The notes under the pieces are model-generated. The model saw nothing but the letters and a program-made list of their open reading frames with translations. It ran no database searches and was not told the origin of the DNA. Positions 842-7,039 of a stretch of DNA of 7,039 nucleotides are shown piece after piece. How positions within the stretch are numbered: the stretch's first letter is position 1; each line of letters begins with the position of its first letter. This DNA is from a virus (lineage: Duplodnaviria > Heunggongvirae > Uroviricota > Caudoviricetes). The position numbers were made by a program, and so were the translations under genes. The stretch lies in IMG/VR virus record IMGVR_UViG_2671180986_000004; one strand, 5' to 3'.

Positions 842-1606
842 ATGGCAAAACCGGACTGGGAGGCCATCGAATCGGCATACCGGGCCGGAGTCCTTAGCCT
901 CCGTGATATAGGCGAGAAATACGGCGTTACAGAAGGGGCTATCAGGAAGAGGGCCAAAAAGCTTGGTTGGGCACGCAGTGGCGGTACGCAGGTTTGCAAA
1001 AATGGTACGCAAAAAAGGAAAGTGCGTACCAGCAGAAAGCCTGCCATTACTGGCCTTACACAAAAAAGTACGCAACTAAAAACAGAATCTACACCGGATA
1101 CGAAACCGATACGCGGAATGCGTACCGATCCCCCGACTAACCCATTCCAACCCGGTAACCAGCAGGCATTAAAACACGGTGGTTATGCCCGTCGCCTTCT
1201 GCTCAAAGATGAGGTGATAGAGGACGCTAAAGCGTTGACGCTCGAGGACGAATTATTTCGCCTTCGTGCTAACAACCTTGTCGCTGCAGAGAATATTGGT
1301 CGGTGGTTGGTGTCGCTGGAAGATGCTAATGGGGACCAGGAAAGGAAGATGCTGATTGAAAATATCAGCGCCGCCGAGAAAGCAATGATGCGCAATACAG
1401 TTCGTATTGAGTCCATCGTTGGCACGCTTGCGACGGTAGGAAAAATATTTGCTGATACAGCCTACCGCAAGGCCGCCACTGATAAGGTGTCTCTGGAGGC
1501 TGATCGTCTTCGCCGTGATGCAGGTATTGATGATGGCAATGGAGAGCGTGACCTCAATGACTTCTACTCTGACATCCAAACCGACGCTGAATCCGGCTTT
1601 ACGTAG
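842..1606 (+). CDS. Phage terminase small subunit (N-terminal helix-turn-helix DNA-binding domain)
   Basis: ATG at 842 with AGGAAG ribosome-binding site at 829-834; 254 aa; stop TAG at 1604-1606. The N-terminus (LSLRDIGEKYGVTEGAIRKRAKKLGW, about nt 893-971) is a classic helix-turn-helix, followed by a basic linker and a helical C-terminal region, as in small terminase subunits. It sits directly upstream of and overlaps the terminase large subunit gene. Confidence 0.8.
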   Translation: MAKPDWEAIESAYRAGVLSLRDIGEKYGVTEGAIRKRAKKLGWARSGGTQVCKNGTQKRKVRTSRKPAITGLTQKSTQLKTESTPDTKPIRGMRTDPPTNPFQPGNQQALKHGGYARRLLLKDEVIEDAKALTLEDELFRLRANNLVAAENIGRWLVSLEDANGDQERKMLIENISAAEKAMMRNTVRIESIVGTLATVGKIFADTAYRKAATDKVSLEADRLRRDAGIDDGNGERDLNDFYSDIQTDAESGFT

Positions 1607-3099
1607 TTTCTGGACTATGCGGGCACGTAACAAAGTGCTTTATGGTGGTCGGTCATCGTCAAAATCATGGGATGCCGCTGGCATTGCCATATTTCTGTCG
1701 AATAAATACACCCTGCGTTTTTGTTGTGCCCGTCAGATCCAGAATAAAATCGAAGAGTCGGTGTATACCCTGCTCAAAATTCAGATAGACAGGTTTGGTC
1801 TGCGGCACCGTTTCCGTATTCTGAACAACAAAATCATTAACCGGGTTACTGGCTCGGAATTTGTTTTTTATGGATTATGGCGCAACATCGAAGAAATTAA
1901 GTCACTGGAGGGGATCGATGTGTTGTGGCTGGAAGAAGCCCACGCACTGACGGAATACCAGTGGAAAATTCTGGAGCCAACGATCCGTAAAGAGGGTTCG
2001 GAATGCTGGTTCATATTCAACCCCGGACTTGTTACTGATTTCGTCTGGCGCAACTTCGTTGTTGATCCGCCCGAAGGCACTCTCATCCGCAAAATTAACT
2101 ATGACGAAAATCCGTTTCTGTCTGACACCATGCTTAAGGTTATCGACGCGGCGCGACGCCGTGATNNNNNNNNNNNNNNNNNNNNNNNNNNNNNNNNNNN
2201 NNNNNNNNNNNNNNNNNNNNNNNNNNNNNNNNNNNNNNNNNNNNNNNNNNNNNNNNNNNNNNNNNNNNNNNNNNNNNNNNNNNNNNNNNNNNNNNNNNNN
2301 NNNNNNNNNNNNNNNNNNNNNNNNNNNNNNNNNNNNNNNNNNNNNNNNNNNNNNNNNNNNNNNNNNNNNNNNNNNNNNNNNNNNNNNNNNNNNNNNNNNN
2401 NNNNNNNNNNNNNNNNNNNNNNNNNNNNNNNNNNNNNNNNNNNNNNNNNNNNNNNNNNNNNNNNNNNNNNNNNNNNNNNNNNNNNNNNNNNNNNNNNNNN
2501 NNNNNNNNNNNNNNNNNNNNNNNNNNNNNNNNNNNNNNNNNNNNNNNNNNNNNNNNNNNNNNNNNNNNNNNNNNNNNNNNNNNNNNNNNNNNGCAGATAT
2601 TGTTTACGACTCTATCGGTGTTGGTGCGTCTGCCGGTGCTAAATTCTCTGAAATTAACGCTGACCGGAAGAGCGAGAACGCATACGCGCGACGTGTGAAT
2701 TACCAGAGGTTTAACGCCGGTGCTGGTGTGCATGAGCCAGATGACGAGTACAACGGCATCCCCAACAAAGACTTTTTCGCAAATCTTAAGGCTCAGGCAT
2801 GGTGGCTGGTGGCTGACCGTTTCAGAAATACGTTTAACGCCATTAACAACGGAGAACAGTATCCTGTGGATGAGCTGATCAGCATAGATTCTCGTTGTCC
2901 GTTGCTTGAAAAGCTGAAACTGGAACTGACAACACCTCATCGTGATTTCGACCGTAACGGACGTGTGATGGTCGAAAGTAAAAAAGACCTCGCAAAACGC
3001 GAGATACCGTCACCAAACGTTGCTGATGCATTCATTATGGCCTTCGCGCCAATCGATACATCGCTGGATATCTGGGAACAGCTGGGGAGACAGGCCTGA
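1557..3099 (+). CDS. Phage terminase large subunit (PBSX/Terminase_3-like ATPase plus C-terminal nuclease), interrupted by a masked N-run and with a coding-frame change across it
   Basis: Walker A-like VLYGGRSSSKS at about 1644-1667 and Walker B-like IDVLWLEE at 1914-1937 are in frame 0. After the N-run (2166-2592) the nuclease-like region (ADIVYDSIGVG ... ADAFIMAFAP) runs in frame +1 to TGA at 3097-3099. Start chosen at ATG 1557 (GGAG at 1541-1544, about 27 residues before the P-loop); the ORF-track start at 1449 is a TTG extension. ATG 1617 is an alternative start. The span 1557-3099 is 1543 nt, not a multiple of 3. Confidence 0.75.
2166..2592. other. Masked or unresolved sequence (427 N) inside the terminase large subunit gene
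   Basis: Contiguous run of n characters; content unknown. Confidence 0.95.
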
Positions 3100-4565
3100 T
3101 GGCACGAAACAAACAAGCCCTGCGGCGAACTGTGCAGGCCACAGCTGATGGTTATGAGAATTTTATTGCCCGCGTAGGGATGCAGACACCTAACCAGCAC
3201 TCAGCATCCACCTACCGGGCTAATTTCACCAGTCGTAACCGCATGCTGGTGGAATGGTCCTATCGTTCATCCTAGATCATCGGCGAAGCAGTCGATGCTA
3301 TCCCGGATGATATGACCCGCAAAGGCATTCGCATCACTTCGGAAATTGATGCAAAAGATCGTGGCATTCTCGAATCACAACTGGATGAGTTGCAAATCTG
3401 GGATGCGCTGAATGACGTGCTGAAATGGTCGCGCCTCTACGGCGGCGCGGTGGGTTTCATCATGATTGAGGGGTAGGCACCAATGACCCCGCTGCGACCC
3501 GAAACCATCGGTAAGGGCAAGTTTAAGGGGATTCTCCCGCTCGACCGCTGGATGGTCGACCCGGCACTGACCCGCCGCATTAAAGATATGGGGCCGGACC
3601 TGGGTAAACCTGAGTTTTACGATGTGGTGACCACAGCAACGGGAATTCCTGCCTGGCGCATTCATCACAGTCGCCTGATTCGCTTTGATGGCGTCACGTT
3701 GCCATTTCAGCAGAAGATGACCGAGAACGAATGGGGAATGTCGGTTGTAGAGCGTATCTGGGATCGTCTTACCGCGTTCGACAGCGCTACTGTCGGCGCG
3801 GCGCAGCTGGTCTACAAGGCGCATTTGCGTACCTACAGCGTGGAGAAGCTACGCGAGCTTATCGCACTTGGTGGTCCTGCGTATGAAGCGTTGCTGAAGA
3901 ATATCGACCTGATTCGACAGTTCCAGAGTAATGAAGGCATGACGCTCATGGACTCGCGGGATAAGTTTGAAACCCATCAGTACAGCTTCAGTGGTCTGGA
4001 TGACATCCTTTCGCAGTTTGTAGAACAGATTAGTGGCGCTGTTGGTATCCCACTGGTGCGGTTGTTCGGACAGTCCCCGAAAGGATTTTCTACCGGTGAT
4101 GCAGACCTTGCCAACTATTACGATCGCATCAGTTCGTTGCAGGAGAGGCGTTTACGTCTTCCGGTGCGGCGGATACTGGACATCATGCATCGTTCGGAAC
4201 TTGGCAAGCCGCTGCCGGACGATTTCACGTTTGAGTTTAACCCGCTCTGGCAAATGTCTGATGTCGATCGCTCAACGGTGGCGTTAAACACCACCAACGC
4301 AATCAGTACGGCGCTGGGTGATGGTCTGATGACACTGAAAGCCGCTATGACTGATTTGCGAGAAAATTCTGACGTAACCGGCATCGGGGCATCCATTACC
4401 GACGAGGAAATCGAGAATGCCGAAGATGAAGCGCCGCCCGGCATCGGCGAACCTGATGACGAACCGCAGGAGCCGTCAGGCGGAAATCCGGTATCGAACC
4501 AGCCTACGCAGGATAGCGAGGGCGGTCGGAGACATCGTAAATGGTCGCTACGATGGTTCAAATGA
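3099..4565 (+). CDS. Phage portal protein reading frame (possibly DUF1073-like); stop-free from ATG 3483, with the N-terminal ~128 codons in the same frame interrupted by two in-frame TAG codons (3273-3275, 3474-3476); possible pseudogene or suppressed amber codons
   Basis: ATG at 3099-3101 overlaps the terminase large TGA (3097-3099) in an ATGA-type junction. Translating frame 0 from 3099 gives MARNKQALRRTVQATADGYENFIARVGMQTPNQHSASTYRANFTSRNRMLVEWSYRSS-TAG-IIGEAVDAIPDDMTRKGIRITSEIDAKDRGILESQLDELQIWDALNDVLKWSRLYGGAVGFIMIEG-TAG-APMTPLRPETIGKGKF..., continuous with the 360-aa ORF 3483-4565. Total about 488 codons, typical of a portal; the stop-free 360-aa part alone would be short. Position after the terminase and the acidic C-terminal tail fit a portal. 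Family name is from memory. Confidence 0.7.
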
Positions 4566-5277
4566 CAGTATCACGGAAATTATTGCGGCGCTGGAGCGTT
4601 ACAGTGAAATCATCACCCCCTGGGCGACAAAGGTCGCGGAAAACTTTACTGCGGACCTAACCCGGCAGAACGAGAAAGTTTGGCGGCAACACAGCAAGAA
4701 CATCAGTCGCGANNNNNNNNNNNNNNNNNNNNNNNNNNNNNNNNNNNNNNNNNNNNNNNNNNNNNNNNNNNNNNNNNNNNNNNNNNNNNNNNNNNNNNNN
4801 NNNNNNNNNNNNNNNNNNNNNNNNNNNNNNNNNNNNNNNNNNNNNNNNNNNNNNNNNNNNNNNNNNNNNNNNNNNNNNNNNNNNNNNNNNNNNNNNNNNN
4901 NNNNNNNNNNNNNNNNNNNNNNNNNNNNNNNNNNNNNNNNNNNNNNNNNNNNNNNNNNNNNNNNNNNNNNNNNNNNNNNNNNNNNNNNNNNNNNNNNNNN
5001 NNNNNNNNNNNNNNNNNNNNNNNNNNNNNNNNNNNNNNNNNNNNNNNNNNNNNNNNNNNNNNNNNNNNNNNNNNNNNNNNNNNNNNNNNNNNNNNNNNNN
5101 NNNNNNNATGGCGATGTCCGAGATTCCCACGATCACATGAAAGGTAAATTCGTCCGCTGGGATTCACCTCCAACTTTGGACGGCATGACCGGCCACGCGG
5201 GCGAGCTGCCAAACTGCCGCTGCTATAAAGAGATCGTGTTTGTTCGCGTTCCATTCGCAATGAAAAGGGCAGCATAA
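4417..5277 (+). CDS. Phage head morphogenesis protein (Mu F-like / SPP1 gp7-like minor head protein), containing a masked N-run
   Basis: The C-terminal segment after the N-run contains HAGELPNCRCY (PNCRC at 5209-5223), matching the conserved motif recalled for the Phage_Mu_F domain. Frame +1 is coherent on both sides of the mask. Stop TAA at 5275-5277, 3 nt before the next gene. The start is uncertain: in-frame ATGs at 4417 (GAGG 9 nt upstream), 4426 and 4456, all inside the portal gene; no in-frame ATG/GTG/TTG exists between 4459 and the mask. Confidence 0.75.
   Translation: MPKMKRRPASANLMTNRRSRQAEIRYRTSLRRIARAVGDIVNGRYDGSNDSITEIIAALERYSEIITPWATKVAENFTADLTRQNEKVWRQHSKNISRXXXXXXXXXXXXXXXXXXXXXXXXXXXXXXXXXXXXXXXXXXXXXXXXXXXXXXXXXXXXXXXXXXXXXXXXXXXXXXXXXXXXXXXXXXXXXXXXXXXXXXXXXXXXXXXXXXXXXXXXXXXXXXXXXXXXXGDVRDSHDHMKGKFVRWDSPPTLDGMTGHAGELPNCRCYKEIVFVRVPFAMKRAA
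4713..5107. other. Masked or unresolved sequence (395 N) inside the head morphogenesis gene
   Basis: Contiguous run of n characters; content unknown. Confidence 0.95.
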
Positions 5278-7011: not shown

Positions 7012-7039
7012 GGAACAGACGAATGAGGTGATGCTGCCA

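Follow-up and report, generated by a model that had tools for sequence, protein, structure and literature searches.

The large terminase subunit gene (terL) found in the stretch of DNA analysed here, a window of 7,039 nt, appears to be coded in two different reading frames, and the question is whether this frame change belongs to the gene or to the record in which the gene is found. The open reading frame that begins with the ATG at 1557, which is also the terL start annotated by PGAP in the related locus L002, stays in frame 0 for 203 residues until it ends at a run of N's at 2165, and the stretch from 2593 to 3099, coding for 168 residues and a stop, is carried by frame +1. When the 427 N's in between (3n+1) are counted literally, the two halves of terL are consequently one frame apart. 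A second run of 395 N's (3n+2) interrupts a head-morphogenesis gene further downstream (Table 1). This arrangement was first described from the letters of the window, and the coordinates, the Walker motifs and the frame arithmetic given in that sequence-only reading are correct, as judged by translation and by the lengths of the N runs. The same reading considered it weakly suggested that the N's are a mask of true length and offered as explanations a frameshift lesion, a split terminase, a hidden intron, intein or homing-endonuclease-like insertion, or an inexact mask length. We find that the frame change is without biological reality, and that it is with very high probability an assembly artefact over a single open reading frame of 1404 nt, coding for a 467-residue large terminase of the PBSX family (Sf6/P22 gp2-like).

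Table 1. Features of the terminase region and the two N runs, in window coordinates
Feature	Position	Strand	Evidence
254-aa ORF in small-terminase position	842..1606	+	ORF list; 50-nt overlap with the terL start
terL residues 1-203 (N-terminal part with the ATPase domain)	1557..2165	+	PF04466 Terminase_3, E=7.9e-35; TIGR01547, 120.9 bits
Walker A, GGRSSSKS	1644..1667	+	translation; aligned to GGRGSGKS of Sf6 gp2
Walker B, IDVLWLEE	1914..1937	+	translation; aligned to IDICWVEE of Sf6 gp2
Scaffold gap, 427 N's; most likely 288 nt coding for terL residues 204-299, including Asp252	2166..2592	.	sister and relative loci
terL C-terminal part, residues 300-467 and stop, RNase H-like nuclease domain	2593..3099	+	PF17288 Terminase_3C, E=8.5e-5, below cutoff
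Scaffold gap, 395 N's; most likely 317 nt of a Mu-F-like head-morphogenesis gene	4713..5107	.	gap-free relatives

Origin of the N runs

The 360-aa portal fragment of the window has a rare SNP at 4409; a search with this fragment led to six contigs, and the window was found to be identical, base for base and with both N runs included, to the 7039-bp contig CXDQ01000201.1 of the assembly GCA_001252575.1 (L014). Since the deposited contig carries the same N's, the runs are gaps of a scaffolded draft assembly and do not mask any known sequence. This notion is furthermore in agreement with the genes recorded for the contig, among which the 5' part of terL is absent and the calls resume at 2695, as is expected where a record already contains N's. 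The assembly is more fragmented than the sister drafts, and its contig begins 941 nt later than that of its sister L013. The runs resemble scaffold gaps of estimated length in being located inside a WGS contig, in that genes are broken only there, and in that their lengths disagree with those of gap-free sisters by tens to more than 100 nt. The N's belong to the deposited record and their lengths are in conflict with near-identical assemblies that have no gaps.

The window is therefore a contig from the scaffolded draft genome of an isolate of Shigella sonnei type, in which two short stretches remained unassembled and were spanned by the scaffolder with N runs of estimated length, such estimates being, by general assembly practice, probably taken from read-pair distances. 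Repeats have been considered as a reason for the contig breaks, but this idea is unsupported, since in complete E. coli genomes, that is in genomes other than the isolate, the two stretches are mostly single-copy (median 1 and maximum 2 places per genome among the genomes that have them). The G+C of the stretches is ordinary (0.50 and 0.56 versus 0.51 overall).

The sequence under the gaps

The most direct evidence on the true lengths comes from two sister contigs, CXDK01000174.1 (L013) and CXDM01000183.1 (L015), which have no N's, share the SNP at 4409 that marks the isolate lineage, and are 100% identical to the window over all 6217 of its 6217 non-N bases (2165+2120+1932). In both, the first gap (427 N's) corresponds to 288 nt and the second (395 N's) to 317 nt. 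Indeed, the window with both stretches filled in equals L013:942-7763 exactly, the 288-nt stretch being L013:3107-3394 and the 317-nt stretch L013:5515-5831. A stretch of 288 nt is likewise found at the gap site in L002-L004, L006-L010 and L012, and terL is continuous at 1404 nt in these nine loci as well as in the two sisters, with flanks that are identical or near-identical. Seven complete S. sonnei-type chromosomes (L003, L004, L006, L007, L009, L010 and L012), which differ from the window by 2-4 SNPs, contain the very same 288 nt without any change, as does E. coli FDAARGOS_944; in the same seven genomes and in FDAARGOS_944 the 395 N's are replaced by 317 nt. One of the seven is the Shigella sonnei 75/02 chromosome CP019689 (L010), and as it is just 2 SNPs away we conclude that the window derives from an S. 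sonnei-type genome. Neither the 15 related loci nor the 118 E. coli genomes compared had extra sequence at the gap site, and all 118 of the 118 complete E. coli genomes matching terL have the gene as a single uninterrupted piece of 1398-1404 nt. Judged by its sisters and relatives, this isolate most likely has the same 288 nt.

The N runs are thus too long by 139 nt (427 versus 288) and by 78 nt (395 versus 317), respectively. An excess of 139 nt is 3n+1 and accounts for the apparent frame change in the downstream half of terL, and an excess of 78 nt is a multiple of three (3x26), so that the head-morphogenesis gene stays in frame by coincidence. It was this preserved frame that had been put forward as weak support for masks of true length, and it lends none. 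The fact that the second run is also too long shows that these N runs are not length-preserving in general, and an inexact length is the one among the proposed explanations that the evidence bears out. Both estimates came out too long, the first shifting the apparent frame of terL and the second leaving the frame of its gene as it was.

The rebuilt terminase

With 288 nt inserted in place of the N's the two halves join, since (2166+288) mod 3 = 0, which is the frame of the ATG at 1557, and the rebuilt terL is one open reading frame of 1404 nt and 467 aa. The length in the sisters is accordingly 3n and they carry a single 467-aa ORF, an outcome that the sequence-only reading had itself named as a refutation, and it follows that terL has no genuine frameshift. 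The rebuilt protein matches TIGR01547, the NCBIfam equivalog model of the PBSX-family phage terminase large subunit, with 142.5 bits over residues 25-425 (cutoff 105.05), and the N-terminal 203 aa of the window alone exceed this cutoff as well. The C-terminal domain model Terminase_3C (PF17288) scores 20.8 bits, which is under the gathering threshold of 26.7, but matches to solved structures span that domain, including the nuclease-domain chain PDB 8dkr_B (E=1.3e-66).

Alignment to a full-length terminase, which had been proposed as a check, shows both domains to be complete and the gap zone to be free of added sequence. Sf6 gp2 (4IDH) aligns with residues 10-449 of the rebuilt protein in one stretch (E=9.4e-79), and the gap zone, residues 204-299, holds 96 residues versus 98 in Sf6 gp2, a 2-residue deletion being the sole indel there. 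Walker A and Walker B, the marks of an ASCE ATPase, are both present and aligned to the Sf6 gp2 motifs, and the acidic triad of the nuclease is found in D252, D305 and D444, of which D252 lies inside the gap and is read only in the sister assemblies. The rebuilt protein thus combines an N-terminal ASCE ATPase with a C-terminal RNase H-like nuclease, and the gap would conceal the inter-domain region together with the first catalytic aspartate. In the relatives there is no added or frame-breaking sequence between ATPase and nuclease of the kind that defines an interrupted terminase, and terL is intact in all S. sonnei-type copies examined. The real terL is therefore almost certainly an ordinary, intact terminase of 467 residues.

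Alternative explanations

An alternative is that this isolate alone carries an insertion or duplication of about 139 nt, or another frameshifting lesion, so that its terL would be truly broken and the break would also have caused the assembly to fail. Genuine lesions of terL do occur among relatives, since E. coli FDAARGOS_943 (L001 5611-6942) has an IS2 inserted at the window-equivalent of ~2005-2010, L005 has a 7-nt deletion at gene positions 1105-1111 and is called as 391 + 77 aa, and L011 has a 1-nt deletion at gene position 1078; furthermore, the prophage is already defective, which leaves no selection against damage to terL, and the N run does exceed the homologous stretch by 139 nt. All three of these lesion sites are however normal in the window and none of them is at the gap. 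In addition, the other gap of this 7-kb contig would have to contain a private insertion too, of 78 nt, although the isolate is identical to its sisters at every readable base, and extra sequence at the site is seen in 0 of 15 related loci and 0 of 118 E. coli genomes. Since two private insertions would be needed in an otherwise identical 7-kb stretch, we regard a lesion private to this isolate as very improbable.

A version of this idea in which an insertion sequence is responsible fits the gap poorly, since such an element would break the contigs at one point, with nothing homologous missing and a gap of at least ~1 kb, and what is absent here is 288 nt of unique sequence. An element like the IS2 of FDAARGOS_943 was accordingly rejected: its site reads through in the window, and an IS under the gap can neither remove 288 nt of unique sequence nor fit an estimate of 427 nt. 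Small insertions in both genes and private to this isolate (~139 nt in terL, ~78 nt in the Mu-F-like gene), which might be copies of some short repeat or mobile element, would break both genes and defeat the assembler, but they are likewise very improbable.

Finally, the idea of an intentional mask of true length with a split terminase, a programmed frameshift or an intron, intein or homing-endonuclease gene inside has in its favour only that 427 is 3n+1 and that the frame of the other interrupted gene is kept, and it can practically be discarded, since the N's stand at the same coordinates in the public record, the other N run is overlong as well, and the protein, when aligned to Sf6 gp2, has both domains in full and a gap zone of near-equal size. 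Inteins and homing-endonuclease genes of typical size are moreover longer than the excess of 139 nt. An intein, intron or homing-endonuclease gene was also rejected on the ground that in the relatives the gap zone codes for nothing but terminase and can be aligned with Sf6 gp2. A frameshift lesion, a split terminase and a hidden insertion are thus all three left without support, and the preferred explanation remains an assembly artefact over an unbroken terL.

State of the prophage and neighbouring genes

The sequence-only reading also suspected that both packaging genes are lesioned, on account of amber codons in the portal gene. This is correct for the portal gene (Phage_portal_3/DUF1073, 3099-4565), which has two in-frame amber codons, TGG>TAG at 3273-3275 and CAG>TAG at 3474-3476, when compared with E. 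coli FDAARGOS_944, where the portal is intact at 488 aa, but it does not hold for terL, which is unbroken in the S. sonnei-type copies. Both stops recur in the sister drafts as well as in the complete S. sonnei-type genomes, in all of which the portal gene is annotated in three pieces (58, 54 and 360 aa), and they must therefore be real pseudogenising mutations of the whole lineage. The window ends with the terminus of an IS1 (7027-7039, GGTGATGCTGCCA), and at the corresponding place in the complete S. sonnei-type genomes (11802-12499 in L003/L004) the IS1 is followed directly by chromosomal genes, namely pgl, ybhD, an aconitase-family gene and a pectinesterase gene. The major capsid gene and all tail genes, present in the E. 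coli relatives L002, L005, L008 and L011, are deleted in the S. sonnei-type genomes, and as these genes are lost beyond the IS1, the prophage is an IS1-truncated remnant. Hence terL is an intact gene within a dead, decaying prophage remnant.

The head-morphogenesis protein, when rebuilt with the 317-nt stretch, is 247 aa long and matches PF04233. For the 254-aa ORF upstream of terL neither Pfam nor NCBIfam gives a match, and in RefSeq E. coli relatives it is a hypothetical protein; its position suggests that it may be the small terminase. When the window between 1400 and 3300 is compared with phage records the terminase region is seen to be mosaic: Klebsiella phages match at ~88% over the TerS-like gene and the beginning of terL, only as far as the gap, and E. 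coli vB_EcoM phages match at 94-97% over the 3' end of terL and the start of the portal gene. Between the lysis and terminase genes a gene for a DedA-family (VTT-domain) membrane protein is found on the minus strand (135-647); it is conserved in all relatives and looks like a prophage cargo (moron) gene.

The sole value of the frame change lies in the caution that it teaches about draft assemblies. N runs in such assemblies are size estimates and reading frames can therefore not be transferred across them, and a frame that is kept over one N run, as in the head-morphogenesis gene, is no proof that the lengths are true.

Comparison with known terminases

The closest reference with known structure considered here is gp2 of Shigella phage Sf6, for which the structures PDB 4IDH, 4IEE and 4IFE, and 5C10-5C2F of the nuclease domain, are available, and for which D244, D296, K428, N441 and D444 have been described as the residues of the nuclease (PMC4678813). 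If the 490-residue PDB chain is assumed to be offset by a tag of 20 residues, these positions correspond to D252, D305, K429, N441 and D444 of the rebuilt protein, so that 5 of 5 are conserved; the last four are included in the C-terminal part readable in the window. Sequence comparison thus indicates that the Walker A and Walker B motifs and the nuclease residues are conserved between the two proteins. The terminase described here is however a diverged homolog from another type of phage, and its activity is a predicted one. Furthermore, its gene belongs to a degraded prophage whose head genes are of the Mu-F-like, DUF2213 and cement-protein kinds, and not to a P22-like podovirus. PGAP names the 99.9% identical E. 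coli gene product WP_038341124.1 a PBSX-family phage terminase large subunit, and there is nothing notable that sets the rebuilt protein apart from this family (TIGR01547; PF04466, PF17288). We can conclude that terL is a routine member of a well-studied and already known terminase family.
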